A stretch of DNA of 35,430 nt from a virus (taxonomy: Duplodnaviria; Heunggongvirae; Uroviricota; Caudoviricetes). Numbering within the stretch: the stretch's first letter is position 1; every line of letters begins with the position of its first letter. The position numbers and the translations under genes are program-made. The stretch spans positions 1-35,430 of IMG/VR virus record IMGVR_UViG_2923302340_000005. One strand, given 5' to 3'. The notes beneath the pieces were generated by a model. The model ran no database searches. It was not told the DNA's origin and saw only the letters and a program-made list of their open reading frames with translations. Below, in pieces: positions 1 through 34,679 of this stretch.

Positions 1-1023
1 TTATGTGGATGAAATGTGGATGCCTCCTTTTAACGGATTAAGTGAAATTGCATCCTGGAGGAAATCAGGAGCGAGGTGCGCATAGGTCATAGTTTGCTGG
101 ATCGTAGCGTGCCCCATAATTCGCTGGAGCGTAAGTATATTTCCTCCATTAATCATAAAGTGAGCAGCAAAGGTATGGCGTAGAACATGTACAGCCTGTC
201 CTTTTGGTAGGTCTGGCTTAACACTGCGAAGCACCTTGCGATATTCCTCATAATTGACGTCAAACAAAAGGCCGGATTTCTTTGTTTTGATCTCACTAAC
301 AACTTCATCAGAGACAGGAATAATTCGAACTTTTCCGTTTTTAGTTTTGTTAAACGTCACGCGATTATTGATGATGTGTTCCGCGCGCAGATTTTTCGCT
401 TCTCCCCATCTCGCCCCAGTACTGAGACAAAGTAGCGTAATCCGCCGGGCATCACCGCTTACTGCATCCAGTAATTTGGCGATTTCTTCCGTGGTGAGAT
501 ACGTCATTTCGGGTGATTTTCGTTTCAAAGAGGGGAGGGCGCGGAGCGGATTTTCTCCGTGAAATTCCCCGGCATTTGCCAGGAGTGTAAACATTCCTCC
601 GAGATCCGACTCATCACGCCGAACAGTAGACTCTTTTACTCCCAAGGATAAACGGGAGCTTCGATAAGCGGCCATGAAACGAGCATTAATCTGGCTAACC
701 CTTGGATCATTCATTTCTTTGATGATTTTTTTCAACCTGGTTAGAACGCCGTTAGCATATGGCTTATTGCGTCCACCCAATTCCCACCATAACGGAAGCA
801 GATCTGAGAGATGACGTTGCTCTGTTGGCTTTTCAAGCCATTCCTTATCGTGCATGTGGCTGAGAACATAACGCTCAAAGGCCACTGCATCTGCCTTTTT
901 CTTAAAAATCCGCTGAATCCGACGTCCACTTCGGCCACGCGGTCTAACATCCACTTTATACCGTCCACCATCGAGCGCTTTAATTGCCATTGGCAAGCCC
1001 TCCGGTGAAACGAGGAAAGACAT
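1..1023 (-). CDS. int: Tyrosine integrase, P2 Int-like
   Basis: 340-aa ORF; C-terminal catalytic region with conserved R...HxxR...Y pattern (VLRHTFAAH, TMTYAHL) typical of phage tyrosine recombinases; sits next to the immunity repressor as in P2. Stop codon at 1-3, so the adjacent att site is outside the window. Confidence 0.9.
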   Translation of the reverse strand: MSFLVSPEGLPMAIKALDGGRYKVDVRPRGRSGRRIQRIFKKKADAVAFERYVLSHMHDKEWLEKPTEQRHLSDLLPLWWELGGRNKPYANGVLTRLKKIIKEMNDPRVSQINARFMAAYRSSRLSLGVKESTVRRDESDLGGMFTLLANAGEFHGENPLRALPSLKRKSPEMTYLTTEEIAKLLDAVSGDARRITLLCLSTGARWGEAKNLRAEHIINNRVTFNKTKNGKVRIIPVSDEVVSEIKTKKSGLLFDVNYEEYRKVLRSVKPDLPKGQAVHVLRHTFAAHFMINGGNILTLQRIMGHATIQQTMTYAHLAPDFLQDAISLNPLKGGIHISST

Positions 1024-4083: not shown

Positions 4084-4190
4084 GAAACCAGAGCATGCAC
4101 ACACAAAAAAACCGCTTGCCATGCCGCAATCAGTCAGGTTACATTTCCGCTGCACCTCATAAAACGGGTGCCGGGTTTCGCAGCCTGCTG

Positions 4191-4395
4191 ACTACAAGAG
4201 CGCACAACCGCGCCAGCGGTTTTTTTGTGCGTACTGTATTGCCACGTTTTTTTCGCGTCAGAATTATGGCGGGGCGTACGGGGCCGACTTCGGTCGGGCC
4301 GGGATCTCTTGTAGCCGGTACTGCGAACCTCGTACGTCTCGCCACCCACAGTTTCGCAGCTCTGGATGGTGAGTTTTCACAACTTACTACAAGAG
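4191..4395. repeat. Three copies of CTACAAGAG, two direct and one inverted
   Basis: ACTACAAGAG at 4191-4200 and 4386-4395; reverse complement CTCTTGTAG at 4306-4314. The third copy contains the AAGAGG ribosome-binding site of the gene at 4406. Confidence 0.7.
4206..4226 (+). terminator. Rho-independent terminator candidate
   Basis: Stem AACCGC / GCGGTT with GCCA loop, followed by a T-run (4221-4226). Confidence 0.55.
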
Positions 4396-7985: not shown

Positions 7986-8945
7986 ATGAAAATTTGTATC
8001 GACGACGGCTCCACCAACATCAAGCTGGCATGGACTGAGAACGGCGAACGCCGCAACGCCATCAGCCCGAACAGTTTCAAGTCGGAATGGTCTGCGCCGT
8101 TCGGTGGCACGCAGCCCGCGAACTACATGCTTGATGGCGTGCGCTATGGTTTTGATCCGGTCAGCGATCGCTTTGTCCAGACGACCGACACGCAATACCA
8201 GTACAGCGATGTGAATGTAATCGCCATTCACCACGCGCTGGTCAAATCAGGCATCACACCACAGGAAGTGGATGTGGTTGTCACCCTGCCACTGAGCGAA
8301 TATTTCGACACAAACGCACAGCCGGACATGGCCAACATCAACCGCAAAAAAGCGAACGTTATGCGCCCGGTGGAGTACCAGAACGGCAAAGCATTCACTA
8401 TCCGTAACGTACGGGTTATGCCTGAATCCATTCCGGCTGGCTTTAAAGCACTGGCTGACATGAGTCCGTTTGAATCCCTGCTGATTGTGGATTTAGGCGG
8501 AACCACGCTGGATGTGGCAAAGGTTCAGGGACAACTGGCAGGTATCAGCCAGGTGTTTTGCGATCCACACGTAGGCGTTTCCCTGATGGCCGATGCCGTA
8601 CTGTCGGTGATGGCTACTAACGGTATGCGTACCAGCCACCACATCGCCAATACCATTATCGAACATCGCCATGATGAAGCCTGGCTGCGCCAGCACATCC
8701 ACAATGACGCGCATTACGCCAGCCTGATGGCGGTTATTCGTGAAAAGGAAGAAACACTGAAACAACGCGTGATCCGCGCACTGGCGGGTTTTTCGGGTTA
8801 CGGGCGGGTGATGGTTGTCGGTGGCGGGGCGGAGATTGTGGCACCCGCTATCCGCGAAGCCTGCGGAGTTAATGCGACTTTCATCGCGGACGGGGTGCCA
8901 CAGTTTGCTCTGGTTAATGGGCTGTACGCAATGGACAAGGAGTAA
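7986..8945 (+). CDS. parM: ParM/StbA-like actin-type segregation ATPase
   Basis: 319 aa; strong resemblance to plasmid R1 ParM as recalled from memory along the whole length (IDDGSTNIKL, ISPNSFK, YSDVNVIAIHHAL, VMPESIPAG, LIVDLGGTTLD, SGY..VMVVGGGAE, LVNGLY). AAGGA RBS. Confidence 0.85.
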   Translation: MKICIDDGSTNIKLAWTENGERRNAISPNSFKSEWSAPFGGTQPANYMLDGVRYGFDPVSDRFVQTTDTQYQYSDVNVIAIHHALVKSGITPQEVDVVVTLPLSEYFDTNAQPDMANINRKKANVMRPVEYQNGKAFTIRNVRVMPESIPAGFKALADMSPFESLLIVDLGGTTLDVAKVQGQLAGISQVFCDPHVGVSLMADAVLSVMATNGMRTSHHIANTIIEHRHDEAWLRQHIHNDAHYASLMAVIREKEETLKQRVIRALAGFSGYGRVMVVGGGAEIVAPAIREACGVNATFIADGVPQFALVNGLYAMDKE

Positions 8946-8949
8946 ACCA

Positions 8950-9261
8950 ATGACGACACCAACCAGACGGATAAGTTTCTATCTGAAGCCCGCCGCCGTC
9001 AAGAACGAAAGCGAAGCATGCGCCTGGCTGGACAGCCTTACACCAGAAGCCCGCAAAAGCGGCCAACGCGTGGCTTTTCTGGCCGGGCTGGCACTTCTGA
9101 AAATGAATCCGGCAGAGGCTTACCGACTGGCTGCATGGGCTGATGGCGAGGCGTTATCAGTGACACAAACCAGGACAGAACGCCCCGTGCCACAGCCAGC
9201 ACCAACCGCACAGATAACCAGTCAGATGGCCGGAAATATCCGGGCGTTATTTCCCGAATAA
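8950..9261 (+). CDS. parR: ParR-like adaptor protein (putative)
   Basis: 103 aa directly downstream of the parM-like gene; AAGGAG 7 nt upstream; resembles R1 ParR (RRISFYLKP..., VAFLAGLAL, C-terminal LFPE). Track ORF starts further upstream inside parM. Confidence 0.65.
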   Translation: MTTPTRRISFYLKPAAVKNESEACAWLDSLTPEARKSGQRVAFLAGLALLKMNPAEAYRLAAWADGEALSVTQTRTERPVPQPAPTAQITSQMAGNIRALFPE

Positions 9262-9324: not shown

Positions 9325-9924
9325 ATGAGCGAAATCAACTATCAGGCACTGCGTGAGTTAGCAAAACAGGCAACACAGGGCGAATGGGTCGCATTTATTT
9401 CGCCGGGCAAATACGGCACGTACGCCGTGCACACACCAGGAGATAATCATCACGGAGATATTGTCGACTGGCCTGGATTCGACGAACAGAAAAACGCAGA
9501 GAACAACGCTCGTTATATCGCAGCTTTCAACCCTGAAGTAGTGCAGGCTCTGTTGGATGAACGAGAAGCCCAAAGCAAACGCATTGCAGAGCTGGAGGCT
9601 AATTTCACGGAGCTGGCAGCGGAGAATGCCGCAATGAAGCTGTTTATCAGGGGCAGTTGCTATGTATTTGATGGAGAGCAGGATGAAATATCTGACGCGT
9701 ATATCTGCGCAACAGACGGAGGAATGCCACAAACCCCAGCCACCGACGCTTTTCTGGCTGAAGTACGGGCGCAGGGCGTGGAGATGCTGGCAAAAAATCA
9801 TCAGAGTATCGTCAATGCACTTAAGGGAGATTCTTTATTTTCTGATGATGAATACCGACATGCAGCTATTGTTTCCGCAGCTGTATATTTCGCCGCAGAG
9901 CTTCGCAAAGGAGGCAGCCAGTGA
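9325..9924 (+). CDS. Ea22/Ead-like family protein, paralog 1
   Basis: 199 aa; N-terminus MSEINYQALRELAKQA and ALLDEREAQSKRIAELE coiled-coil motif; AGGAG RBS. Confidence 0.55.
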   Translation: MSEINYQALRELAKQATQGEWVAFISPGKYGTYAVHTPGDNHHGDIVDWPGFDEQKNAENNARYIAAFNPEVVQALLDEREAQSKRIAELEANFTELAAENAAMKLFIRGSCYVFDGEQDEISDAYICATDGGMPQTPATDAFLAEVRAQGVEMLAKNHQSIVNALKGDSLFSDDEYRHAAIVSAAVYFAAELRKGGSQ

Positions 9925-10460
9925 GCAAAATTGACTATCAGGCACTACAAATGGCAGCAGAACGTGCAATTCCGGCAATGGAACGCCTGTTAATATTGCC
10001 AGTTGATGATGATTTGTTAAGCGAACAGGAACTTAAAGATTACGGTGTGGATATTGACGCGATCAACACCTTCAGAATTCTGGCTGGACCGGAAGACATG
10101 CTGGCACTGCTGGATGAACTGGAAACAGCAAAAAAACGCATCGCTGAACTGGAAAAAATCGCCACTGACTATGCACTTAAATTCCAGAAAGCACAGGACG
10201 CATTAAAGTATGCCGCTTTGCTGCATAGCAGGACGGCGCAACAAACAAATAATTTTGCAGTATCGCTTCCGGACATAAGCGAATATTTCATTAATGACGT
10301 ATTTCAGCCCTTGCGATACGAGCGGGATGTTGAAAGAGCCATCATAAAGGCTGGCGGAAAAGCATTGTGGCAGGAGAAGCACGAGGAAAGAACGCATCAG
10401 CTAAGTGATGTAAATAGTGGATGGTTATGCCCACTGACAGAAGGTAAAAAGAACACCTGA
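9921..10460 (+). CDS. Ea22/Ead-like family protein, paralog 2
   Basis: 179 aa; GTG start overlapping the upstream stop (GTGA), AAGGAGG RBS; N-terminus MSKIDYQALQ and ALLDELETAKKRIAELE; divergent C-terminus. Confidence 0.55.
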   Translation: MSKIDYQALQMAAERAIPAMERLLILPVDDDLLSEQELKDYGVDIDAINTFRILAGPEDMLALLDELETAKKRIAELEKIATDYALKFQKAQDALKYAALLHSRTAQQTNNFAVSLPDISEYFINDVFQPLRYERDVERAIIKAGGKALWQEKHEERTHQLSDVNSGWLCPLTEGKKNT

Positions 10461-14364: not shown

Positions 14365-14518
14365 TGCTCCCCCTGAGTAATTACAGGAAGATTACCCGCG
14401 CGCGAAACCGTTCTCCTTAACCCCCTGTTCTGGCCGTTTTCTTACAACAAAAGCCCTTTGTATCAGCCTGTTACGCTTTGCCATCATGACTGAAGAACCA
14501 GTCAGAGGGGCAAAAACT

Positions 14519-15355
14519 ATGGCTAATGAAAAAAAGACATCCCGCAAAAAGTTTCGCGTGGCTGTCTCCGGATCAACTGTTGATGGCCGCGAAATCAGCC
14601 CGGTACATCTGCGTGAAGCCGCCGAGAACTTCAACCCGGATGTTTACGCTGCCCGCGTGAACGTTGAGCACTATCTCTCGCCATGCCCGTCAAGCGAATT
14701 TTCCGCAATGGGCGATGTCACCGCGCTGAGTACGGAAGATATTACGGAAGGCCCGCTGGCCGGACGTACTGCGCTGTATGCAGAAATCGAACCGACCGAG
14801 CGCATGAAGCAGCTTGTCGCTGACGGCAAGAAAATCTATTCCAGTATCGAACTGCACCCGCAGTTCTCCGTTAACGGGCGCGCCTATCTGGTCGGGCTGG
14901 CGATGACCGACACCCCGGCAAGCCTGGGCACTGAGCGCCTGAAATTCACGGCACAGCAACGTCAGGCGGTAATGACGTTCAACAGTGTCCAGGGTGAAGC
15001 GCCGCTTATCTCCGAAGCCATCGAGTCTGAAATCATCGAAATGGCAGAACAACGCCAGGAAGAAGGCATCCAGTGGTTTAACCGCGTAATGGGAATTATT
15101 GGCCGTGGCCGCAAAGCGGATGACGCCAGTTTTTCCCGTATTCAGGAAGCGGTGGAAGGCGTCGCAACGTCACAGGCCGACATTATCGACCGTTTTAATG
15201 TGCTGGAAACCCGCCATCAGCAGGACCGCCAGAAAATTACGTCACTGACCACAGAGCTGACAGCACTGAAGGAAAAACTGCGCACGCAGGACGGCGATCC
15301 GCAGAACCGGTTCACCGCAACGGGCGCAGCCTCCGACCAGCTGGCTGACTTCTGA
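14519..15355 (+). CDS. O: Capsid scaffolding protein, P2 gpO-like
   Basis: Start ATG 14519 with AGAGGGG RBS (track ORF starts at 14486); similar to P2 gpO (FR..V.G.T.DGR.IS, IEP...........YLVGLA.TD.PASLGTE). Confidence 0.85.
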   Translation: MANEKKTSRKKFRVAVSGSTVDGREISPVHLREAAENFNPDVYAARVNVEHYLSPCPSSEFSAMGDVTALSTEDITEGPLAGRTALYAEIEPTERMKQLVADGKKIYSSIELHPQFSVNGRAYLVGLAMTDTPASLGTERLKFTAQQRQAVMTFNSVQGEAPLISEAIESEIIEMAEQRQEEGIQWFNRVMGIIGRGRKADDASFSRIQEAVEGVATSQADIIDRFNVLETRHQQDRQKITSLTTELTALKEKLRTQDGDPQNRFTATGAASDQLADF

Positions 15356-19345: not shown

Positions 19346-19799
19346 TTCCCTGCGTGAAGCCATGACCCGTTCATGCCGATGGTGTCAGGCTAACCCGGAA
19401 AAATTCACCATTTTCGTGGAGAGCGGCAACATTGAAACGACCGGAGAAACGCCCTCGTTTGTTTACCGCTATCAGATGGTGATGTTTGTCATGGATTACG
19501 CCGGGGAGCTGGACGACCTCACGCTGCCGCTGCTGGCGTGGTTATCCGAAAATCAGCCACAGTTGTTGCTCAACCCTGAGCGTAATCAGGACATCAAATT
19601 CTCCGCCGTTATCAATGACGATGACAGCGCCGATCTCCTGTTTACGCTCCCCCTGCGGGAACGCGTTCGCATCACGCGCAGCAGTCAGGGCACACCGCAG
19701 GCAGAACACCTGCCGGAGCCAAAACCCCGCCTGCCATCTTCCGAAGGCGACTGGTCGCATGTATTCCAGGATGTGACGTGGGGTGAAAGCGATGGATAA
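19332..19799 (+). CDS. R: Tail completion protein, P2 gpR-like
   Basis: 155 aa, same length as P2 gpR; shared N-terminal motif MLK.DSLR and PLLAWL.EN.P. Confidence 0.8.
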   Translation: MLKTDSLREAMTRSCRWCQANPEKFTIFVESGNIETTGETPSFVYRYQMVMFVMDYAGELDDLTLPLLAWLSENQPQLLLNPERNQDIKFSAVINDDDSADLLFTLPLRERVRITRSSQGTPQAEHLPEPKPRLPSSEGDWSHVFQDVTWGESDG

Positions 19800-20427
19800 G
19801 GCATTCACCCGCGTGGATGAAACCTTTGAGGCCATCCGCGACAGCCTGAATCAGCAGGCCATCAATAACATCGCCAGAAAGCTGGCACAGGATTTACGCC
19901 GCGCCCAGCAGGCGCGTATCCGGTCACAGAAAGCGCCGGACGGGACCGCGTGGACACCACGCAGACGCCGCGTAACCCGGATACAGGAACGCATTCGCTT
20001 TATCTGGAATAACGAAGCACGCACGCTGAAAAACTGGCATCACGACACGGGGAAATACGGGCGAACCATTACCGGGTGGGATGAGGATAAAAACAATATC
20101 CGCACGTTTTACCGGGATGACATCGACCGTTTTCTGGAAATACGCACCCGGCGCATCAACCAGGACAGCACAAAGCGCGTCCCCATGTTCGTAAAACTGC
20201 GCACCGCCCGCTACCTGAAAGCCCGTGCAGATGCTTCCGGTGTGACGGTGGGTTACAGCGGCGTGGCCGCACGTATTGCCCGCGTTCATCAGTTCGGTGA
20301 GCGCGATCAGGTTGCGCCGGGCATTTTCACCGATTACCCGGTACGTGAGCTGTTGGGTATCAGCCAGGCAGATGAGCGCCTGATTTATAACACGGTGCTG
20401 GGCCGGATTGCGGAGGCTGTACGGTGA
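19792..20427 (+). CDS. S: Tail completion / virion morphogenesis protein, P2 gpS-like
   Basis: Position between R and V; start ATG 19792 (track gives 19783). Confidence 0.7.
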   Translation: MDKAFTRVDETFEAIRDSLNQQAINNIARKLAQDLRRAQQARIRSQKAPDGTAWTPRRRRVTRIQERIRFIWNNEARTLKNWHHDTGKYGRTITGWDEDKNNIRTFYRDDIDRFLEIRTRRINQDSTKRVPMFVKLRTARYLKARADASGVTVGYSGVAARIARVHQFGERDQVAPGIFTDYPVRELLGISQADERLIYNTVLGRIAEAVR

Positions 20428-21005
20428 GCGCAGAACTCATGCGACTGCTGAGCAACATCATCCGTACCGGGATCATCTCTGAAGTTGATGAGGAATCCTG
20501 GTGCGTGCGCGTTCGCAGCGGCGAACTGGAAACAGGCTGGCTGCGCTGGAACACCACGCGCGCGGGAGCCTTCAATGTGTGGCTGCCGCCATCACCAGGC
20601 GAACAGGTGGTAATTGCCTGCATTGGCGGCAACCCGGAAACCGCCATGATAATTGGCAGCCTGTGGAGTGATGCCAGTCCGGCCCCCGGCAAAAGCCTGA
20701 ACGAAATCGTGATCAGCGCGCCGGACGGCGCGGTGTTCCGCTACGACGCGGACGCAGGCGCACTGAGCGCCAGCGGCATGAAAACGGCCACCCTGCAGGC
20801 ATCCGTCAGCGTGACACTGGACACGCCCGTCGTGGAATGCACAGACCTTCTGAGAACAGCGACGCTTGACGTCACAAAAGGGGGAAAGATGAGCGGCAAT
20901 ATCACGCACAGCGGCGGCAATTTCACCTCAAACGGCATCACAGTGCATACGCATAAACACGGTGGCGTTAAAGGTGGCAGCGATTCGACAGGAGGCCCGC
21001 AATGA
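20424..21005 (+). CDS. V: Baseplate spike protein, P2 gpV-like
   Basis: 193 aa; matches P2 gpV (IRTGII, VTLDTP.V.CT, KGG.M.GNI.H.GG...SNG...HTHKH); GTG start with GGAGG RBS. Confidence 0.85.
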   Translation: MSAELMRLLSNIIRTGIISEVDEESWCVRVRSGELETGWLRWNTTRAGAFNVWLPPSPGEQVVIACIGGNPETAMIIGSLWSDASPAPGKSLNEIVISAPDGAVFRYDADAGALSASGMKTATLQASVSVTLDTPVVECTDLLRTATLDVTKGGKMSGNITHSGGNFTSNGITVHTHKHGGVKGGSDSTGGPQ

Positions 21006-22782: not shown

Positions 22783-25440
22783 ATGAGCACGAAATTTAAA
22801 ACCGTTATCACTACTGCCGGAGCCGCGAAGCTGGCAGCCGCCACCGTCCCCGGCGGGAAAAAAGTAAACCTGTCTGCAATGGCCGTGGGTGACGGTAATG
22901 GCAAATTGCCGGTGCCGGATGCCGGTCAGACGAAACTGGTGCATGAGGTCTGGCGTCACGCTCTGAATAAAGTCAGCGTGGATAACAAGAATAAAAACTA
23001 TATCGTGGCTGAACTGGTTGTACCGCCCGAAGTGGGCGGCTTCTGGATGCGTGAGCTTGGTCTGTATGACGATGCCGGAACACTGATTGCGGTATCCAAC
23101 ATGGCAGAAAGCTATAAGCCAGAACTGGCTGAAGGCTCCGGACGTGCGCAGACCTGCCGCATGGTTATTATTGTCAGCAACGTGGCGTCCGTTGAGCTGA
23201 GTATTGATGCCAGCACAGTGATGGCGACGCAGGATTACGTCGATGATAAAATCGCAGAGCATGAGCAATCCCGCCGCCATCCTGACGCCACGCTGACAGA
23301 AAAAGGTTTTACTCAGTTAAGCAGTGCAACAAACAGCACCAGTGAAAAGCTGGCGGCAACGCCAAAAGCGGTCAAGGCAGCAAATGACAACGCAAATTCA
23401 CGTCTGGCGAAAAATCAGAACGGTGCAGATATCCAGGATAAATCAGCTTTTCTGGACAATATTGGTGTTACCAGCCTGACGTTTATGAAAAACAACGGCG
23501 AAATGCCGCTTGATGCTGACTTGAATACATTTGGTCCCGTTAAGGCTTATCTTGGCATCTGGTCTAAAGCAACATCCACCAACGCAACACTGGAGAAAAA
23601 TTTCCCGGAAGATAATGCTGTCGGTGTGCTTGAGGTTTTTGCAGCTGGCAATTTTGCAGGCACACAACGTTTTATCACGAGAGACGGCAATGTATACATG
23701 CGTAAACTCGTCAATAAGTGGAATGGCACTGATGGTCCGTGGGGCGTATGGCGTCACACTCAATCAGCTACCCGCCCTTTGAGTACGACTATAGACCTGA
23801 ATACGCTTGGAGCCGCTGAGCATCTTGGTTTATGGCGTAACAGTAGCTCGGCTATAGCTTCATATGAACGCAATTATCCAGAGGAAGGCGGCTTTGCTCA
23901 GGGGACGCTTGAGATCCTCGAAGGCGGGAATTATGGAAGAACGCAACGTTATACCACTCGTCGTGGGAATATGTACGTTCGCTGCCTTGCGGCAAGCTGG
24001 GATGCATCAAATCCGCAGTGGGAACCGTGGTTAAGAGTCGGTCATCAGTCAGAGAGCCGTTATTACGAAGGTGATTTGAATGTTCTAACCGACCCCGGTA
24101 TTTACAGTGTTACAGGAAAGGCGACAAACGGTCCGATTCTGGACGCTGCTGGGGCGACATTGCTTGGGATACTGGAAGTAATCAGGCGTTTTGATGGTGT
24201 ATCTGTCTGGCAGCGTTACACAACAACAGGGAGATCAAAAACCACACAGGGGCGCACTTTTGAGCGCGTCTACGCCGGGAGCACATGGACCGAATGGCGA
24301 GAAGTGTATAACTCCTTTTCGTTGCCCCTGAATATGGGGATCGGTGGCGCAGTGGCAAAACTCACCAGCCTGGACTGGCAGACCTACGATTTTGTGCCGG
24401 GCAGTCTGATAACCGTTCAGCTTGATAACATGACCAATATTCCCGACGGTATGGACTGGGGCGTCATTGATGGCAACCTGATAAACATCGCAGTTGGTCC
24501 GAGTGATGATTCCGGTACGGGGCGCTCAATGCATGTATGGCGCAGCACTGTAAGTAAAGCGAATTACCGCTTTTTTATGGTTCGCATTTCAGGAAATCCG
24601 GGAAGCCGCACGATTACGACAAGACGTGTGCCAATTATCGACGAAGCTCAGACATGGGCGGCGAAACAGACATTCAGCGGTGGTCTTTCAGGCGAACTAT
24701 CCGGCAATGCTGCTACAGCAACAAAGCTGAAAACGGCAAGGACAATTAACGGCGTAAAATTTGACGGCTCGGCAAATATTGAAGCGTTTCCGCCAGGTGT
24801 TCCGCTGCCGTGGCCATCAGATACACCACCTGCAGGTTATGCAATCATGCAGGGGCAGACGTTTGATAAGGCAGCATATCCGAAACTGGCTATTGCCTAT
24901 CCTTCTGGTGTTATTCCAGATATGCGCGGCTGGACAATCAAGGGCAAACCCGCCAGTGGTCGGGCCGTATTGTCTCAGGAACAGGATGGCATTAAATCGC
25001 ACACCCACAGTGCCAGCGCATCCAATACGGATTTGGGTACGAAAACCACATCGTCGTTTGATTACGGTACTAAATCAACGAATAACACAGGTGCACATAC
25101 CCATAATGTATCTGGTACTGCAAATAGTGCTGGCGCACATACTCATACCGTTCCATTAAGGAGACCAAACAGTGGCGGTATGAATTTCGACTGGCTGGAT
25201 GGTTCATCAAGTGGCACGGTGGTGGGGAATGGAACTGTGCCTTCTTCTGGCGCACATACCCACTCAGTATCAGGTACCGCTACAAGTGCTGGGGCACATG
25301 CACACACTGTTGGTATTGGCGCTCATACGCACTCTGTTGCGATTGGTTCACATGGACACACCATCACCGTTAACGCTGCTGGTAACGCGGAAAACACCGT
25401 TAAAAACATCGCATTTAATTATATTGTGAGGCTTGCATAA
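22783..25440 (+). CDS. H: Tail fibre protein, P2 gpH-like with His-box C-terminal repeats
   Basis: 885 aa; conserved P2 H-type N-terminus ([18 protein letters not shown]); C-terminal 150 aa carries repeated GAHTHxVSGTAxSAGAHxHTV modules. Confidence 0.85.
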
Positions 25441-26057
25441 TGGCATTCAGAATGAGTGAACAATCACGTACCGTAAAAATTTATAACCTGCTGGCCGGAA
25501 CTAATGAGTTTATTGGTGAAGGTGACGCATATATTCCACCTCATACAGGGCTGCCAGCTAATTCTACAGATATCGCCCCACCGGAAATTCCTGCTGGCTT
25601 TGTGGCAGTTTTTAACAGTGAAAATGAATCGTGGAATATTGTTGAAGACCATCGTGGTAAAACGGTCTATGACGTGGCGTCGGGGGACGCATTGTTTATT
25701 TCTGAACTCGGACCGCTATCAGAGAATGTCACCTGGTTGTCGCCAGCAGGGGAGTATCAGAAGTGGGACGGCGTATCCTGGGTGAAGGATGAGGAAGCAG
25801 AAAAACTGTTTCGGATACGGGAAGCGGAAGAGAAAAAGGCAAGGTTGATCCAGGAAGCAACAGATAACATCGCAATTCTGCAGGATGCAGTTAATCTTGA
25901 AATAGCAACAAACGAGGAAAATTCACAACTGGATTCCTGGAGAAAATACAGAGTATTAGTGAGTAGAATTGACACCAGTACAGCTCCGGATATCGTATGG
26001 CCAGAGCTGATGAATCAGGGTTATGTTCGGGAGGACGAGCAGATAACTTCAGACTGA
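25440..26057 (+). CDS. G: Tail fibre assembly chaperone, P2 gpG-like
   Basis: 205 aa; start overlaps the H stop (TAATG); typical Tfa N-terminus ([34 protein letters not shown]). Confidence 0.8.
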
Positions 26058-26584
26058 AATTTAGTGATGAATGTTGAATCATCAGGAATATCATGCAATA
26101 CCAATGCATGAGCACCTATTGTGACATTGTTTCCTATACGCACTTTGCCACCAAGAATGGTGGCATTACAACCAATGGTCACATTATGCCCTATAACAAT
26201 ATCCATATCATTAAATTCCCCGCGAAGTCCAATAGTTACTCCGGGCTTAATTGAACAATTTTCACCGATTGTTACTTTGTGACCGATAACAACACTGTTG
26301 AGATAAGAAATATCAAAGCCTTTCCCTATATTTACAGTTAAAGGGACTGTTACATTATATTTATCAAGAATGAAACGTTCTATTTTTCCCGCAATCTTCC
26401 GACAGTATCCGCCTTTATCAAAAAGGTATTTGGCTATGCGCCACCAAAATAAATAACGAAGTCTTCTATGTTTTATTGCGCGAACAATTGCCTTTCGCCA
26501 GGAGAAAGGACGCTCGCTACCGATTACTTCATAGTGAATACAGTCTTTAAGTTCATTAATATTCATATCTCTATTATTCAGCAT
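26021..26584 (-). CDS. Hexapeptide-repeat (left-handed beta-helix) O-acetyltransferase, WcaB/CysE-like; cargo gene at the Z/fun position
   Basis: 187 aa; N-terminal helical segment then tandem hexapeptide repeats ([43 protein letters not shown]); visibly AT-rich against its neighbours; weak RBS; 3' end overlaps the G stop by 37 bp. Confidence 0.7.
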
Positions 26585-26754
26585 AAGATAATCATGTGAC
26601 CAATTATTGTAATAATTTTAATGGTATGTTTCTACTGGCTATCCAGCGTGTCTGATACCCAGTAACAAATCGTTAATACGGGGGCAATCAAATGGTGAGT
26701 GTTAAGACTGGCCACTTATTACCAGGTATGAGGGTATGAGTGGCCAGCATTAAA

Positions 26755-27249
26755 TCAGAACAGTCCTTTAACTGAACTGGCCGCGCTGTTAAGGGATGAT
26801 GTCACTTTATCTTTGAAGCCGGACAGCATATCGCTGAACGATGAGGATTGCAGGCGCTCCCGCAAATCCTCATCACAGCGTTCAAGGGTCAGTGAAAATT
26901 CTATCTTTTTCGCCTTACCGTAGCGATCAAACTCGGAGCGGGTCGTATTCGTTTCAGTCAGTACATACATGCCGTAAATCTGCCCGACACCATCAATCAG
27001 AGGCCAGGGGCGTCCTGTATACGCCTGCGTGGTCAGCAACGAAAGCGACACTTCGCCACCTGTAATTTCAGGATAAAGCACGCCGGAAAGCACGATGCGA
27101 TCATCACCTGCACCGATATACTGCCAGCTTGCTGAGCAGTTAACGCGTTCATTTTTCACATGCCGCCAGCTTTTGTTTTGCTGTAACTGCTGATGCGGCA
27201 GCGTGCGCAGCTCAAAAACAAACATGCCGTAGATCATCATCATGGCCAT
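26755..27249 (-). CDS. U: Tail protein, P2 gpU-like
   Basis: 164 aa; close match to P2 gpU (GMFVF.LRT.P.QQLQ, LSGVL.PEITGG, KIEFSL). Confidence 0.85.
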   Translation of the reverse strand: MAMMMIYGMFVFELRTLPHQQLQQNKSWRHVKNERVNCSASWQYIGAGDDRIVLSGVLYPEITGGEVSLSLLTTQAYTGRPWPLIDGVGQIYGMYVLTETNTTRSEFDRYGKAKKIEFSLTLERCDEDLRERLQSSSFSDMLSGFKDKVTSSLNSAASSVKGLF

Positions 27250-27255
27250 GACTCC

Positions 27256-30099
27256 TCAATCTTTATCGTAAAAACTGCCACGCCCGGCACGGGCGCGCCG
27301 TTCCATTTCTGCCCTGACCATTTCACCGACCAGTTTCGCCAGTTCGCGGGGATTCTGTGTAACAACGTTATGCAGATGAACATGAATTTCACCGCCAAAT
27401 CCGGAGGCAACAGGCTCCCGGTTACGGGAAGTTGCAGGAACTGATGCCACTGGCGATCGTATGGCCTCCGCCACCGGGCGGGAACTGGCCGCAACAACAG
27501 GGACCAGCGCCGGAGGCAGCGGAGCCGGGACCACGGGTGTGATATTAATTGCGGGGGCAGGCTTACTGACCTGCGCAATCTTCCGCTCCTGCCACTCTCC
27601 ACGAACAGCAAGTGCGCGGGGCAGGTTCTTAAAGACAATATCGCCGGGGCCAATGCGTTTTTTCGTCTCATCAACCAGCTTACCTGTGTTATCAGCAATT
27701 TTGCTGAGTCTGCGTAGCGTCCCGGTATTGCTGTCTGTGAGCGGTTTGTTGTCTTTGGGTTTATTACCTCCGGTGCCATTGCCATTTTCCACAGGCTTCG
27801 GCGGATTGATTTTCGCCAGGTCACCCTGAAGCAAGGCAACCTTGTCCTGAAGAATGGCCGCACGCTGTGCGTCTTCGATTTTCTTGCGCGCCCTTTCCGC
27901 TTCATCCGGAAGGACGCCAAGTTTTTCAAGTATCCACGCCAGCGTATCCAGTAGCATTTTTGCAGGTGTCAGAACAAGCTGTAACGCACCGCCAAGAACG
28001 TTACCGAATATCTCGCCAGCACTGGTACATTTATCCAGCGTTTCCTTGCTGGACTCCATCGGTGACAGCAGCGATTTAAACCAGTTAAACACCTGGCTGA
28101 TCCCGCTTCCGATTGTGTCAAAAACAGGACCAAACCGTTCAAAGGTTTCGCGCAACGGGGTCAGCCTTTCCATAATCCCGCTGAACACCCCGGCAAAAAA
28201 TGCCCTGATGGGATCCCAGTATTTCCAGATAAGAACGGCAGCTCCGGCAAGCGCAGCCACGATAAGACCAACCGGACTGAACAGCGCCCCGATAGCGCCT
28301 CCCAGTAAAGAAACGGAACCCGTCACCATTCCCCACAGCGCAGGCAACACCCTGACGACATTCATTGACCGGGTAAGAATGTCAAAACCAAGACGCAGGG
28401 TGGCCAGCTTCCCGTAAAGCACCCCAATAACCAGCGACAACGAGCCAATCGTTGCAGTCATTGCCAGCAACGCACCGCCTGCTATCAGTAGCTGGCGCGT
28501 CAGTACCGGATGGGCCTGCGCCAGCGAGGTGATTTTTTCAAGCACCCGCGTGAGCCACTGCGTGACAGAACGCAGCGGACCGTCAACCAGATCACTGATG
28601 CGAATACGAAGACCTTCCCATGCGCTGTCGAGATTTTTCAGGTCCCCATCAAGATTATCGGCCATTACTTTTGCGACGCGATCGGCCTCTCCCCTTGCCC
28701 CCTGCAATTCTCTGGTCAGTTTTTGCAGCTCTCCTGAACCAGCCGCCGCAACAAGCGTCTGCAAACCAACGAACGCCTCTTCTCCGGCGATGTCCTTGAA
28801 GAAGGAAACCTGGTCCACCTGTCCGTATTTTTGTGTCGCCTTATAGAGATCAAGCAGCACATCCTCCATCGGGCGCATTTTGCCTCTGGCGTCAGCAACT
28901 GACACCCCCAGCTCTTTCAGTGCATCAGCCGCAGCTTTTGGCGGTGATGCAAGGCGGGACAGACTTGCGCGCATGGCCGTACCAGCATCGCTTCCGCGAA
29001 GACCATTATTGGCAAGCATCCCGGCCATGGCTGCCGCTTCTTCAAGACTGATACCAAGTTTTGCGGCAACCGGACCGGTATACTTCATGGTTTCGCCCAG
29101 CGCGCGTAAATCAGTATTGGTCCGGGTGAATGCTGCTGTCAGCGTATCGCCAACACGGTCCATTTGATCGGCTGTCAGGTTGAACTGTGTGAGGATATTG
29201 GAGCCTATATCAGCCGTCTCGCCGAGTTCGACGCCACCTGCCAGCGCCATATTAAGAACACCGGGCAATGCGGCCTGAATGGCCTGCGGAGTAAAACCAG
29301 CCATTGCCAGAAAGCTCTGCCCACTGGCGGCATCACTCGCAGTAAACTGTGTTTCAGAGCCAAGTTTTAACGCCTGCTCACGCAGCGCCTTAAACTGTGG
29401 GCTGTTTTTGTCGATTCGCGTCAGTGCCTGAACGCGGGACATCTCTTTGCCGAACCCGATCGCAGGCTGCAAAAAACGCCCGGCAGCATAGCCGCCCGCC
29501 GTTGCCGCACCAATTGCCAGCGCACCACCTGTTTTCAGTTTTCCCGCTGTTTCCTGCGCGCGCGAATACCGCTCACGCGCCCGTGTTACACGCGCAAGCG
29601 CCTGCCGTTCGCGTTCAAGCTGGTTGTTGTACTGTTCGGTGCGTCTGATGGCCTGCTGGATGGTGTTATCGCTGCCTGTCAGGGAAATGCCGTGGCGTTT
29701 CAGCTCTCCGCCAAGCTCCCGCATTTTCTGAATTTCCCGTGTGCGCGATTCATTCAGGCGTTCAAGCCGGGTGCTTAACTGCTGCATCAGCTTTTGTTGT
29801 TTTTCGCTGAGCACTGTACCCGTGCGTTGTAACTGATTAAGGGCGTTAAGCTGGCGTCGTGCTTTCAATATGCCAGCATCCGCTTTACCGACAGCGTCAC
29901 GGGCGCGCTCAAATGAACGCGCCTGACGCTCGAGATTTTTGATCGCCCCCTGCGTTCGCTGGATGGAGTCACCAAACTGCCCCATCAGGCGGCGGGCGTT
30001 TTCGGCAGGCCGGGTCAGCCTGTCAACGGCGCTGAAAGCGACCCGGATGTCAAGAGTCTTCATTGTCTGCATTCCCGCTGCGAAGTGCCGCCCGCTCAC
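27256..30099 (-). CDS. T: Tail tape measure protein, P2 gpT-like
   Basis: 947 aa, long helical N-terminal part and hydrophobic central segments typical of tape measure proteins; immediately follows E/E'. Alternative start at internal ATG 30069. Confidence 0.85.
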   Translation of the reverse strand: MSGRHFAAGMQTMKTLDIRVAFSAVDRLTRPAENARRLMGQFGDSIQRTQGAIKNLERQARSFERARDAVGKADAGILKARRQLNALNQLQRTGTVLSEKQQKLMQQLSTRLERLNESRTREIQKMRELGGELKRHGISLTGSDNTIQQAIRRTEQYNNQLERERQALARVTRARERYSRAQETAGKLKTGGALAIGAATAGGYAAGRFLQPAIGFGKEMSRVQALTRIDKNSPQFKALREQALKLGSETQFTASDAASGQSFLAMAGFTPQAIQAALPGVLNMALAGGVELGETADIGSNILTQFNLTADQMDRVGDTLTAAFTRTNTDLRALGETMKYTGPVAAKLGISLEEAAAMAGMLANNGLRGSDAGTAMRASLSRLASPPKAAADALKELGVSVADARGKMRPMEDVLLDLYKATQKYGQVDQVSFFKDIAGEEAFVGLQTLVAAAGSGELQKLTRELQGARGEADRVAKVMADNLDGDLKNLDSAWEGLRIRISDLVDGPLRSVTQWLTRVLEKITSLAQAHPVLTRQLLIAGGALLAMTATIGSLSLVIGVLYGKLATLRLGFDILTRSMNVVRVLPALWGMVTGSVSLLGGAIGALFSPVGLIVAALAGAAVLIWKYWDPIRAFFAGVFSGIMERLTPLRETFERFGPVFDTIGSGISQVFNWFKSLLSPMESSKETLDKCTSAGEIFGNVLGGALQLVLTPAKMLLDTLAWILEKLGVLPDEAERARKKIEDAQRAAILQDKVALLQGDLAKINPPKPVENGNGTGGNKPKDNKPLTDSNTGTLRRLSKIADNTGKLVDETKKRIGPGDIVFKNLPRALAVRGEWQERKIAQVSKPAPAINITPVVPAPLPPALVPVVAASSRPVAEAIRSPVASVPATSRNREPVASGFGGEIHVHLHNVVTQNPRELAKLVGEMVRAEMERRARAGRGSFYDKD

Positions 30100-30579
30100 G
30101 CCAGCTAACCACTTCGCCGGGCGTCATCATGAAGATTTCGGCGGGCGACCAGTTAAAAATGGCGGCAATATCCGCCACCAGATCTTCGATGTGCTCAAAG
30201 CACACCAGGGTGATTACGCTGCCGTCTCCTGCACGCTCTTCGCGCCAGAGTCTGGCTCGCTCATAAAATTTACAGCCACAGCGCACAACTGAATAAAATC
30301 GCGTGACGACATTTTTTTAATCATCACTTCATCCAGTCGTGGCGAGGTCACGCGAGGCAACAGCGTGAACATGGTATCCGCTTTCAGATTCAGCACATCA
30401 GACAGCGACAGACCACGCAGGGATCCAGCCTGCTCAATAGCCCCGGTGATCTCCACATACGTGATTTTTTCGCCACCACGCTCAATTGGTCGGGTCAGTT
30501 TTACGCCACGCTCGCTGGTTTCTTTCACAGTGTCAGCAACGACCGTATTTTCGGTATCGATGTTTTTCGTCTCTTTCAT
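30050..30579 (-). CDS. E+E' fusion made by programmed -1 frameshift
   Basis: Plus-strand T7 run at 30312-30318 (AAAAAAA on the coding strand, in codons AUU AAA AAA AUG); the -1 frame is open from this site to the stop at 30050 and overlaps the T start. Confidence 0.65.
30214..30579 (-). CDS. E: Tail assembly chaperone, P2 gpE-like (unshifted product)
   Basis: 121 aa between tail tube and tape measure genes; contains an A7 slippery run. Confidence 0.8.
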   Translation of the reverse strand: MKETKNIDTENTVVADTVKETSERGVKLTRPIERGGEKITYVEITGAIEQAGSLRGLSLSDVLNLKADTMFTLLPRVTSPRLDEVMIKKMSSRDFIQLCAVAVNFMSEPDSGAKSVQETAA

Positions 30580-30633
30580 CAGGAAACTCCTTTCAGTCAG
30601 AGGCGACGCACTGCGCCGCCTGCATATTACTTA

Positions 30634-31146
30634 TCAGCCAAGCCCGAGCGCGGAACGGATGCGATCGGGCACAATGTCCTTGCCGTCCTTCCGGTAAATG
30701 AAGTTCAGCAGGTCAATCTCCCACAACGGGCGATCGTTAACACTCAGCTTGTAGTAGGTGTTTTTAATGGCGTAAGTGTGTGATGTGGCTTCGCCCTGTT
30801 TGGCTTCCCCCATATCAATTTCCGTCACACGTCCGCGCATTTCGACTTCATACAGGTCGCTTTCATCATCGGTGTAGTATTCACCCGCAAAACGCAGCAG
30901 CGTGCCGTCAATCGTGCCGCCATACTTCAGGAACAGCTCACGAACTGCGCCCCCCATGACAAAGCTCGCATCAAGCGCGGAGTCGTCCAGACCGAGATCA
31001 ATACTTACCGCCCCCATCATGCCACCACCCCGGTAGCTGTCGGTTTTGCGCGTCAGTTTAGGCAGGGTGACGGACGTCACCTTACCCACTTCGTTTTCAC
31101 CATCCACAAACAGCGTAAAAAAGCGAAGATGTTTTGGTACAGCCAT
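30634..31146 (-). CDS. FII: Tail tube protein, P2 gpFII-like
   Basis: 170 aa; size and position downstream of the sheath gene. Confidence 0.85.
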   Translation of the reverse strand: MAVPKHLRFFTLFVDGENEVGKVTSVTLPKLTRKTDSYRGGGMMGAVSIDLGLDDSALDASFVMGGAVRELFLKYGGTIDGTLLRFAGEYYTDDESDLYEVEMRGRVTEIDMGEAKQGEATSHTYAIKNTYYKLSVNDRPLWEIDLLNFIYRKDGKDIVPDRIRSALGLG

Positions 31147-32330
31147 CAGGCACCTCCCAGCACCGCAAATGCGGGACCAAAGAATTCATCAGTAAACGAC
31201 TGGTAAAGCTCCATGTCTTCCAGCGGAGGAACGGGCGTATATTTGTAGCGAATACGCACACGCCCCTGACGTAAATTCGTGGTGCTGTTATCCACGATGT
31301 CATACCAGCACTCCGCGCCAATCAGTTTCCCGGCAGTAACCAGTGAATCCAGTTTTGCCCTGATGGCACTGATAACATCCTTCACGTTCGCAGGCGTCAG
31401 TGGACTGTCGATGGTTTCAAACTGCGCTTCCGCAATTGAATCAGCCAGCACCTGTGCAGTTCGGGTATACACCTCAAAGATGTAGGCGTTCGTTTCCGGT
31501 GTGCGGTTGCCCCAGAAGCGGAACCCGTTGCGACGAATAATGGTCGTGATTTCTTTGTTGTTGAGGCTGTTGGCATCGCTGTCTTCGGCCTGCAACGACC
31601 AGAACACATGCCTCGACATCCCCAGCACATTTTTAACCGGAACGTTGGACAGCGATTTGTGCCAGCCCTGCTCATGGTCAATGTACGCACGAAGGCCGCA
31701 CGCATAAGCAGGCGCGGGGAACGTTTCGTTTTCGCCACTTTTCGGGTTGTAGGCGATGAAGTCCGGCCATAAGAGCATCACTTCACGTTCGTTGAATTTC
31801 TGGCGGTAGGTAATCGCTTCAGCCATCGTGTTACAGCCGTGACATGAGGCATACACAAATGCGCGCAGTTTACCCGCAATCACGCACAGGGATTTTGTCA
31901 CCGCCTCCGTGTCCAGCTCCGGCGCGGCCAGAATACGCGGACGGTATCCGATGCTTTCATCCTGCTCTGCAACAAGCAGCGCATACATCCCCGTATAGCT
32001 GCCGTCATCCTCAGAACCACCGATAACCAGTTGATCCTGCGTCTTTTCGTCTTCTTCTTTGTGTTCAGCCACGCGAACGACGATCACCTTTGTGCTCACC
32101 TGGTCTGCGATGGCCTTAAGCGCACGATAAAGCGTCCCCGTTGTTCCGCATTTTCCCAGCACGTCATTGACGCGGGTCAGCAGTGTGGGCTTGTTCAGCG
32201 GGAACAGCTTCGCGTCCGCATCATCCGCCGTTGCCACGATACCGATAACGCTGGAATCAACATCGTTAATCGCTGTTACCAGGTCGGTATTTTCCGTAAC
32301 ACGGGCACCATGAAAACGAGTTTCACTCAT
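31146..32330 (-). CDS. FI: Tail sheath protein, P2 gpFI-like
   Basis: 394 aa; AAGGGG RBS; first gene of the leftward sheath-tube-E-T-U block. Confidence 0.85.
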   Translation of the reverse strand: MSETRFHGARVTENTDLVTAINDVDSSVIGIVATADDADAKLFPLNKPTLLTRVNDVLGKCGTTGTLYRALKAIADQVSTKVIVVRVAEHKEEDEKTQDQLVIGGSEDDGSYTGMYALLVAEQDESIGYRPRILAAPELDTEAVTKSLCVIAGKLRAFVYASCHGCNTMAEAITYRQKFNEREVMLLWPDFIAYNPKSGENETFPAPAYACGLRAYIDHEQGWHKSLSNVPVKNVLGMSRHVFWSLQAEDSDANSLNNKEITTIIRRNGFRFWGNRTPETNAYIFEVYTRTAQVLADSIAEAQFETIDSPLTPANVKDVISAIRAKLDSLVTAGKLIGAECWYDIVDNSTTNLRQGRVRIRYKYTPVPPLEDMELYQSFTDEFFGPAFAVLGGA

Positions 32331-32487
32331 AGCTTCAGCCCCTTGTATCCGTTAAATGATTCGGCAACAATCATCACCCACCACGCGCGTAATCTCACCC
32401 CTGCGCCGTTCTCCCGCCACGGCGACAACAAAAAGCAGTAACCCCCTCCGCACGCACATGCGACCATGCCACACAAGGAGGGAGCAG

Positions 32488-33597
32488 ATGACCGACACCA
32501 CCATGCAATTGCTCAGTCAGGGCACAGACCCCGTGAAAATGCCGGATTTTGATATTCTCGCGGAGGGTAAAACGCTGTCAGGCGTGGCAGAGCGCCTGAT
32601 GAGCCTGTCACTGACCGACAACCGGGGATTTGAGGCGGACCAGCTCACCATCACGCTGGATGATGCGGATGGTCAGTTGCAGCTACCGCCACGGGGCGCG
32701 CGCCTGACGGTTCTCATTGGCTGGAAAGGCGAACCGCTGACAGAAAAAGGCACTTACATTGTTGATGAAATCGCTCACGAAGGACCGCCGGACAGGCTGA
32801 CTGTTTCAGCCAGAAGCGCAGATTTTCGGGATGAATTTAACGTTAAACGTGAGGTGTCCTGGCATGATGTGACCGTTGAGCGTGTGGTATCCGCCATCGC
32901 TCATCGGTACGGTCTGAAACCGCAAATCAGCGAAATGCTGATGGATATCGAAATCGACCACGCCGACCAGACCGAAGAAAGCGACATGTCCTTTCTTACG
33001 CGCATGGCGGAAATGCTGGGCGCAATCACCACGGTAAAAAGCGGTAATCTGTTATTCATTATGCCAGGCAGTGGCGTGAACGCACAGGGCCAGCCGTTGC
33101 CATCGTTCGCCATCACGCGCAGCAGTGGCGATCGCCATCAGTTCCGCATTGCTGACCGCGAAGCGTATACGGGGGTACGCGCTTACTGGCTTGATCTTAA
33201 TTACGGGAAAAAGAAAAAAGTCAGCGTGAAACGCCGCAAACCGCCAAAAACCAAAAAGGAGAAAAGCAGCAGCCGTGAAGGTGATTATATGGAAGGCGCG
33301 GAAGGCAATGTGTTTGTGTTACGCAAGACTTATCAGAACGAACAGGCAGCAAGACGCGCAGCGGCGGCAAAGTGGCAGCAGCTACAACGCGGAGCCGCAT
33401 CATTCTCCATCACGCTGGCACGTGGTCGTGCAGAACTCTACCCCGAAATGCATGGCACGGTAACAGGATTTAAAAGCGAGATTGATAATCAGGACTGGAT
33501 TATTGCAAAAGCCGAGCACATCATTGATAACAGCGGCTTTACCACGCAGCTTGAGCTTGAGGCAAAAATCCCGGAATGGATAGCAGAAACAGACTGA
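32488..33597 (+). CDS. D: Tail / late control protein, P2 gpD-like
   Basis: Start ATG 32488 behind AAGGAGGGAG (track ORF starts at 32356); matches P2 gpD (LSLTDNRGFEADQL.I.LDD.DGQ..LP.RGA, GWKG). Confidence 0.8.
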   Translation: MTDTTMQLLSQGTDPVKMPDFDILAEGKTLSGVAERLMSLSLTDNRGFEADQLTITLDDADGQLQLPPRGARLTVLIGWKGEPLTEKGTYIVDEIAHEGPPDRLTVSARSADFRDEFNVKREVSWHDVTVERVVSAIAHRYGLKPQISEMLMDIEIDHADQTEESDMSFLTRMAEMLGAITTVKSGNLLFIMPGSGVNAQGQPLPSFAITRSSGDRHQFRIADREAYTGVRAYWLDLNYGKKKKVSVKRRKPPKTKKEKSSSREGDYMEGAEGNVFVLRKTYQNEQAARRAAAAKWQQLQRGAASFSITLARGRAELYPEMHGTVTGFKSEIDNQDWIIAKAEHIIDNSGFTTQLELEAKIPEWIAETD

Positions 33598-33639
33598 ACA
33601 ACTTAGAATAGCGCCAGCACCACGTTAAGGGAGGTCGCT

Positions 33640-33900
33640 ATGTTCCGTTGTCCGCTTTGTGGCGCATCTGCCCGTATCCGCACCAGTCGTCCGGAAAATG
33701 ATTCAAACACCGTGCGGCAAAAGTATTACCAGTGTAACAACCTGGAATGCGGCGTATGCTTCTCAACACTGGAAGCCTTCCATAAATTCACATCAAAACA
33801 CGCCTCCGGCGTTCACTCTTCAGAAGGTATCCCGTGGCATGAGCTGCCAGCTTCACACAGGGGAAACAATCAGATGAGTTTGCCTTTACCTCAGAATTAA
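33640..33900 (+). CDS. ogr: Ogr/Delta-family zinc-finger late transcription activator
   Basis: 86 aa; MF.CPLC...AR.RTSR......Y.QC.N..C matches the Ogr CxxC...CxxC zinc finger; last gene of the phage backbone; AAGGGAGG RBS. Confidence 0.8.
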   Translation: MFRCPLCGASARIRTSRPENDSNTVRQKYYQCNNLECGVCFSTLEAFHKFTSKHASGVHSSEGIPWHELPASHRGNNQMSLPLPQN

Positions 33901-33988
33901 CAGGCAGAATTGCCGGAGTAACAAAAAAGCGATAGATTACGCGCGGGTGCCTTTCGGCTGATGGTCGGAGGGAATACCCGAAGGCCAG

Positions 33989-34225
33989 ATGTGGAAAGGC
34001 CCCGGAAAACATTTCTGTTTAACCGAGGCCCTAACACTTCTTACCTTCGCAAGTAGAAGGTTAGCGCCTCTCCTCTCAGGAGACAAGCGTTATGACGCAA
34101 ATTCCGTTAAAAACCCTGTTACTTTGCATAACTGCGGTAGCGATAATCTGGATCCTCCACACATCACCGTGCGAGTTACGATTCAGGTTTGCTGGCACGG
34201 AAATTGCGGCATTCTTACTATGTAA
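33989..34225 (+). CDS. Mok-like overlapping reading frame (putative)
   Basis: 78-aa ORF in a different frame that spans the hok-like gene, as mok does in hok/sok loci; no independent support. Confidence 0.3.
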   Translation: MWKGPGKHFCLTEALTLLTFASRRLAPLLSGDKRYDANSVKNPVTLHNCGSDNLDPPHITVRVTIQVCWHGNCGILTM

Positions 34226-34232
34226 TAAGTAA
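34092..34232 (+). CDS. hok: Hok/Gef-family type I toxin (46 aa)
   Basis: Not in the ORF track. AGGAG 9 nt upstream of ATG 34092; translation MTQIPLKTLLLCITAVAIIWILHTSPCELRFRFAGTEIAAFLLCNK has the Hok signature: hydrophobic helix with CxT, then CE(L/V)R.R....E(I/V)AAF..C. Confidence 0.75.
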   Translation: MTQIPLKTLLLCITAVAIIWILHTSPCELRFRFAGTEIAAFLLCNK

Positions 34233-34319
34233 GATAACCGCGACGGGGGAGTAATCCCCCGTCAATCGGTTGCTAAGGTTGGTCGAAACGGCACCCTATC
34301 TCACAGACATGAACAACAA

Positions 34320-34353
34320 ACCCGCAGCGTAAAAACTGCGGGTTTTCTTTTTG
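34320..34353 (+). terminator. Rho-independent terminator at the 3' end of the hok-like transcript
   Basis: Stem CCCGCAG / CTGCGGG followed by TTTTCTTTTT; a second hairpin GGTGCCCTC / GAGGGCACC lies at 34354-34376. Confidence 0.6.
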
Positions 34354-34481: not shown

Positions 34482-34679
34482 ATGACGCAAAATGTACGAT
34501 GCAAAAATTGCAACAAACTACTTGCCCGCGCCTCATTTCACTACATTGAAATAAAATGTCCGCGCTGCAAAACACTTAACCAGATAACGAGAGCCATCGA
34601 GCACCCCACACACATGAGGAGTTATGACCGTGGGGATCGCAATCCAGCACCAACCAGCACATACACCGGAACACACTAA
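34482..34679 (+). CDS. com: Com-like zinc-finger protein (Mu Com family)
   Basis: 65 aa from ATG 34482 (track starts at GTG 34473); RCKNCNKLL...HYIEIKCPRCK is nearly identical to the Mu Com zinc finger as I recall it; 3' end overlaps the methyltransferase start by 56 nt. Confidence 0.75.
   Translation: MTQNVRCKNCNKLLARASFHYIEIKCPRCKTLNQITRAIEHPTHMRSYDRGDRNPAPTSTYTGTH

Follow-up and report, generated by a model that had tools for sequence, protein, structure and literature searches.

A clade-wide inversion of the sheath-to-U tail genes in P88-like relatives of phage P2, with a predicted activator site shared by two divergent late promoters

In the prophage analyzed here (Caudoviricetes, IMG/VR record IMGVR_UViG_2923302340_000005, positions 1 to 35,430; this whole stretch of 35,430 nucleotides is called the window), the genes running from the tail sheath gene FI to gene U are leftward, whereas the tail gene D and the activator gene ogr are rightward. 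A preliminary description, made from the letters of the DNA, had read this block as inverted relative to the P2 map, with D cut off from its usual operon and no canonical Ogr-type box in the region between FI and D. We asked whether the arrangement is unusual, how it arose and how D could be transcribed.

Genes were called from a six-frame list of open reading frames and a Pfam scan of the window, and the identities and strands are those given by the preliminary description. On the minus strand, the tail sheath gene FI (31146..32330, Pfam sheath domains) is the first gene of the leftward unit. It is followed by the tail tube gene FII (30634..31146, Phage_tube, 1.3e-47), the tail assembly chaperone pair E (30214-30579) and E+E' (30050..30579, a weak match to Phage_TAC_7), the tape measure gene T (27256..30099, PhageMin_Tail, 1.6e-56) and, last of the block, the tail gene U (26755..27249, Phage_P2_GpU, 4.9e-38). 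As read from the frames, E passes by a -1 frameshift at the slippery sequence A_AAT_TTT (30272-30266) into the frame ending at 30050, and the annotation of phage P88 has the same two E and E' pieces. The reading frame of T opens at a GTG at 30099 and its likely start is the ATG at 30063, which matches the length of the P88 gene (2808 nt). On the plus strand, the tail/baseplate hub gene D (32488..33597, Phage_GPD) encodes a protein 49-54% identical to D of P2, 186 and Fels-2, and 42 nt downstream of it lies the gene of an ogr-type zinc-finger late activator of 86 amino acids (33640..33900, Ogr_Delta, 5.1e-14). The D reading frame opens at 32356, and its real start is the ATG at 32488, which stands just after the Shine-Dalgarno sequence AAGGAGGG (32475-32482). 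A start at the upstream ATG at 32356 was rejected, as the 44 codons that it would add fall in a part of the spacer that is not conserved and is rich in indels among relatives, and the ATG at 32488 has a strong Shine-Dalgarno sequence in front of it. The divergent spacer between FI and D covers 32331-32487, and the 157 bp announced for it were found.

All seven products of the F operon (FI, FII, E, E', T, U and D) are encoded in the window, on the basis of Pfam and, for E', of the frame read from the sequence. FI to U are on the minus strand and D, divergent from FI, is on the plus strand; D is thus detached from the F unit and lies outside the transcription unit of FI. At the other end of the block, the equivalent of P2 gene G, a tail fibre assembly gene (25440..26057, plus strand, Caudo_TAP, 3.5e-39), is the final gene of the rightward V...G late unit, with a cargo site to its right. 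Downstream of ogr, 33989-34345 corresponds to the hok/gef gene of P88 ('MokW-like host killing'), a strong bidirectional terminator-like hairpin is found at 34318-34345, and the reading frame of a DNA methylase starting at 34624 runs off the end of the window.

The P2 map given in the preliminary description proved to be correct. In the RefSeq annotations of P2, 186, PSP3 and Fels-2, FI-FII-E-E'-T-U-D-ogr lie on one strand, the same as V...G, and the P2 annotation gives a single transcription start for the "F operon; encodes FI, FII, E, E', T, U, D". The synteny comparison suggested by the preliminary description was made with these four phages; all are collinear, so that the block is indeed inverted relative to them.

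A very different picture emerges from the closest relatives. Positions 1-25000 are about 96% identical to P88-type phages at the nucleotide level over 75-82% of their length (95.8% over 75% for P88), and positions 25400-34300 are 93.7% identical to P88 over 85%. The block and its flanks (26750-34300) match P88, 500465-2, P884B11, PhiR44_2 and the Citrobacter phage PhiSM as one collinear piece at 93-96%. These P88-like phages of the genus Xuanwuvirus share with the window the order U-T-E'-E-FII-FI (minus) / D-ogr (plus) and the same 157-bp FI-D spacer, and differ from it in the tail-fibre gene H. By nucleotide identity and gene order, and leaving aside the ICTV genus threshold, the window is a P88-like (Xuanwuvirus) prophage of the P2 family. 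P88 and PhiSM form plaques (PMC5285337, PMC6456863), and the inverted gene order is therefore fully functional.

Several other features of this prophage can be mentioned here. On the plus strand, 7986-9261 holds the gene of a ParM/StbA actin-like segregation ATPase of plasmid type (Pfam 3.8e-82) and, after it, a Plasmid_stab_B (ParR-like) gene; the ParM cassette is shared with the Xuanwuvirus phages above, parM being annotated in P88 and PhiSM too. The same prophage carries an integrase gene (1-1023, minus strand), and the two together raise the question of a plasmid-like persistence of these phages. In the early region, Rfam matches above the gathering score identify the Hfq-binding RNA isrK (4152-4226, plus strand, 66.7 bits) and a C4 antisense RNA (4262-4349, plus strand, 81.1 bits), which make up (4152-4349) an immunity RNA module of the P1/P7 type in a P2-like phage. 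An accessory region with the replication gene A on one side and the portal gene on the other holds two tandem Ead/Ea22-like genes (9325-10460, plus strand). Lastly, PhiSM virions have been described as siphovirus-like, with non-contractile tails (PMC6456863), whereas the genome of record OR565851 is that of a P88-like member of the Peduoviridae with sheath and tube proteins; the study may have confused virion morphologies.

How far the inverted order extends was assessed in GTDB species-representative genomes, which were scanned with a D-protein alignment; the best 80 of the 459 genome hits were scored for orientation by tblastn with the J, I, U, T, E, FII, FI, D and ogr products of the window. 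Among these 80 loci, identity to the D protein of the window separates the two orders cleanly: the 35 loci at 61% or above are all inverted, and the 45 at 54% or below are all collinear. The inverted loci are found in many genera of Enterobacterales, namely Salmonella, Edwardsiella, Kluyvera, Citrobacter, Brenneria, Kosakonia, Serratia, Klebsiella, Xenorhabdus, Photorhabdus, Providencia, Morganella, Rouxiella, Hafnia, Yersinia, Pectobacterium, Pantoea and others, and the named phages of the inverted group belong to at least four ICTV genera, Xuanwuvirus, Senquatrovirus (SEN5), Reginaelenavirus and Reipivirus. Neighbour-joining trees, without support values, were built for D, FI, U and FII; each of them groups the 39-40 inverted genomes, and no others, in a single clade. 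Orientation follows this clade strictly, with 40 inverted genomes out of 40 inside and the other order in 42 out of 42 scored genomes outside. Since the distant relatives phi52237 of Burkholderia and MAR of Vibrio, used as outgroups, are collinear and the clade is exclusive, the collinear order would be ancestral and the inversion would have arisen once and then been inherited. Of 5426 complete Escherichia coli genomes, 1370, about a quarter, carry the FI/D junction itself (32150-32700) at an identity of at least 90%. Altogether, these comparisons of sequences indicate that the inversion is not a new rearrangement: it is old, fixed and typical of its lineage, a large clade of Peduoviridae. The preliminary description was thus right that the inversion is real, and the condition that it had itself set against its reading, a lineage-typical arrangement, applies here. 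The gene order is already visible in published or annotated genomes (P88, SEN4/5 and many RefSeq prophages). We found no explicit description of the inversion in the papers on P88, PhiSM, SEN4/5, Burkholderia P2-like phages and the P2 hotspot (2026), though an earlier one may exist.

We then come to the spacer. The consensus of the P2 late promoters is TGT-N12-ACA (PMC3931495). Exact matches to it occur six times in the whole window, no more than expected by chance, and none of them is in a late control region; its absence from the FI-D spacer had been correctly noted. A box with a single mismatch, TCT-N12-ACA, is nevertheless present at 32410-32427 (centre 32418.5). Such candidate boxes were found after relaxing one position, guided by an alignment of the FI-D spacers of 35 distinct clade members. 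At the aligned position the exact TGT-N12-ACA is found in 27 of the 35 spacers, TCT-N12-ACA in six, including the window, and a symmetric TCT-N12-AGA in two Providencia prophages. The annotated P2 sites for pP/pO and for pF also carry one mismatch each (TGT-N12-CCA). Because a box with at most one mismatch is expected by chance about 0.6 times per 150 bp, the case for the imperfect box of the window rests on its conserved position. Relatives have exact boxes there, and the variant recurs at the P/O region of the same genome (see below); the suggestion of a spacer devoid of an Ogr-type site was thus misleading.

The dyad is flanked by two putative promoter elements. With the minimal criterion.A...T for a -10 hexamer, a hexamer starting 44 nt from the dyad centre is found on the FI side in 35/35 spacers and on the D side in 31/35, these spacers being related and the counts therefore not independent; at any other offset from 25 to 61 nt it is found in at most 8 of the 35. 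In the window these are the predicted -10 of a leftward promoter pF, GATGAT (32370..32375, minus strand), and of a rightward promoter pD, GACCAT (32462..32467, plus strand), which are mirror-symmetric about 32418.5, each 44-49 nt from the dyad centre. From their positions, transcription would start near 32363 (minus strand) for pF and near 32474 (plus strand) for pD, the latter just before the Shine-Dalgarno sequence of D. Compared with an exact TGT-N12-ACA about 55 nt upstream of a start, the box of the window is one mismatch off and the start is predicted from the -10 only. The FI ATG stands 78-88 nt from the dyad in the clade and 82.5 nt from it in P2, so that the older of the two promoters would seem to be the one on the FI side and the newer the one on the D side. 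On the D side the distance to the ATG is also narrowly kept, at about 65-83 nt.

The cognate activator is encoded in the same genome, its four cysteines of the Ogr/Delta C4 zinc finger being conserved in the alignment. The Ogr proteins of the inverted clade (the window and loci L006-L040) have 83-86 amino acids and a conserved C-terminal tail (IP..FPxSH[Y/R]G..Q), whereas Ogr, B and Pag of P2, 186 and Fels-2 have 72 and are devoid of this tail. In the first zinc-knuckle region, the two Providencia prophages with the TCT-N12-AGA dyad have TYTKTS instead of AKTRTS, and YYQCNN accompanies TCT in the group of the window. This correspondence between Ogr residues and box variants looked suggestive, but it was dropped since one locus, L040, breaks the pattern.

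We propose, with a probability of roughly 0.75, that a single ancient and fixed inversion left one Ogr-type dyad to serve two divergent late promoters that depend on the activator, pF and pD, each about 55 nt away from it. The inversion would have set the promoter region of FI directly against D. Ogr would bind the dyad at 32410-32427 and activate pF leftward, towards FI...U, and from the same dyad it would activate pD rightward, towards D. Transcription from pD would probably read on into ogr, because the terminator scan found no terminator in the 42-nt gap between D and ogr. Owing to the symmetry of the dyad, inverting FI...U together with its promoter region would automatically bring the activator site to D, and only a -10-like element at the right distance from the dyad would have had to be present or to evolve on the D side.

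One could object that the tail module was never inverted in place and is a foreign sheath-tube-tape-measure cassette, inserted in the opposite orientation by horizontal transfer. Phage modules are often exchanged, and the left boundary of the block coincides with a known cargo and recombination hotspot. The preliminary description had placed one inversion boundary at the Z/fun cargo site, and this is where it lies: between G and U the window carries, at the position of fun(Z) in P2, a hexapeptide-repeat acyl/acetyltransferase gene (26021..26584, minus strand, Hexapep, 1.1e-12), while P88 has there an invertase and an alternative fibre segment. Part of the fibre genes and the acyltransferase form a segment that matches phage vB_EcoM-613R2 at 98.5% of nucleotides, where the gene is annotated as 'serine acetyltransferase'. 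The acyltransferase segment has a low GC content (about 41%) and the gene gave no PADLOC defence-family match; its product could be a surface-modifying enzyme involved in lysogenic conversion. The homology with P88 ends near 26750, at the stop codon of U, directly downstream of which an inverted-repeat search found a hairpin with 18-nt arms that are 83% complementary (26702..26753, minus strand). It could terminate the leftward F unit, although its T-tract is weak and the terminator scan did not call it. In the tail block itself, FI, FII and U are 43-46% and E 35% identical to their P2 counterparts, and the neighbouring D, V and P 49%, 46% and 44%; since the proteins of the block are as diverged from P2 as those of its flanks, inversion in place is favoured over a foreign replacement. 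The D, FI, U and FII trees agree on the same exclusive clade, and the history of the block is therefore that of its neighbours. Moreover, the geometry of the promoter on the FI side has been kept as in P2. We thus consider such a replacement very improbable. Still harder to sustain is a segment that would be flipped at present by a DNA invertase of the Gin/Cin/Hin type, an idea to which the invertase genes located directly beside U in P88 and beside FI in Fels-2 could lend some credit. In these relatives, however, the invertase serves the tail-fibre segment, and in the window the site holds the acyltransferase and no invertase (Pfam). An inverted-repeat search of the block ends, called for by the preliminary description, gave no repeats, of crossover type or other, pairing 26.6-26.76 kb with 32.33-32.49 kb, a result in keeping with an old inversion. 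With the orientation fixed inside and outside the clade, a present-day invertase switch was rejected.

A different objection concerns the second half of our proposal. The conserved dyad could serve FI only, the promoter of D being independent of Ogr or relying on a site of its own. D is physically uncoupled from the F unit, and a G+C-rich palindrome-like element, conserved across the clade alignment as CGCGCGC..GCG, lies between the dyad and the hexamer of the D side (32448..32462, plus strand), where it could bind another factor. On the other hand, a promoter scan of 32331-32487 gave no sigma-70-like consensus promoter, the D-side hexamer keeps its exact offset of 44 nt in 31 of the 35 spacers and the D ATG its distance from the dyad. 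Besides, pP/pO of P2 shows that one dyad can serve two directions. A separate D promoter is thus unlikely, though less so than a foreign cassette.

The shared dyad between pF and pD, which we prefer, can be compared with the other divergent late control region of the window. Between P and O, a dyad of the same variant, TCT-N12-ACA, followed by ACAAAAGC as at FI/D, is found at 14429..14446; the two boxes are alike down to the extended right half (GTTCT-N12-ACAACAAAAGC at P/O), and within each of the four genomes examined the P/O and F/D boxes use the same variant. The reading frame of the scaffold gene O opens at an ATG at 14486, but its likely start is the ATG at 14519, which has a GAGGGG Shine-Dalgarno sequence and from which the protein aligns with P2 O; with this start, a P2-like spacing to the P/O dyad is restored. 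More generally, callers of reading frames may over-extend O into the late promoter region. Upstream of V, where a third late promoter would be sought, the S-like gene (19783-20427, plus strand) and V (20424-21005, plus strand) overlap by 4 nt and leave no intergenic gap, and the search gave no dyad accompanied by a -10 at the proper distance. The pV promoter of P2 may thus have no counterpart here, O...G being then one long unit. A more speculative extension, to which we give somewhat less than even odds, would be that the inversion of pF created a second bidirectional Ogr node, so that all late transcription in the clade would issue from two mirror-symmetric regions, P<-|->O...G and U...FI<-|->D-ogr, with no separate pV and with the activator gene directly behind a late promoter.

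These results have practical consequences. A flipped sheath-to-U block beside D is a reliable signature of the P88/SEN4/Klebsiella-type branch of P2-like phages, and should not be taken by annotators as a sign of rearrangement, misassembly or prophage degradation. If true, the idea of a second Ogr node would be a documented case of an operon inversion that made a new regulated promoter out of a dyad-symmetric activator site already in place. As a modest example, the putative sharing of one dyad by pF and pD would illustrate that an operon with a symmetric activator site can be inverted successfully with no need for new regulation. This bidirectional reading of pF and pD may not have been spelled out before, but it extends directly what is known of P2.

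A parallel can be drawn with several known systems. The inverted order and the dyad geometry are shared beyond Xuanwuvirus with Senquatrovirus SEN4/SEN5, Reginaelenavirus and Reipivirus, Peduoviridae of Klebsiella and Salmonella, whose D proteins are 63-72% identical to that of the window; unlike the window, SEN5 and Kp4871-3 have the exact TGT-N12-ACA. With the F operon of P2 and its Ogr-dependent pF, the window has in common the same genes, 33-49% identical, the E/E' frameshift, an Ogr-family activator downstream of D and a dyad about 82-88 nt upstream of the FI ATG. It differs by FI...U lying on the strand opposite to D and V...G, by D lying outside the operon and by a dyad that sits between FI and D. 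Other rearrangements of late operons have been reported in a P2-like phage, and phage Smp131 has a single shared box for PP' and PO' (PMC3931495). The closest model remains the pP/pO pair of P2, which already uses the divergent architecture with a shared dyad. There, one annotated activator site stands midway between the two promoters, with -10-like hexamers 44-49 nt from the dyad centre and mapped starts 55.5 nt from it on each side. The pP/pO pair controls other genes, its starts are mapped whereas the FI/D layout is predicted, and the half-site of the window is TCT instead of TGT; the predicted FI/D layout is nonetheless equally symmetric.
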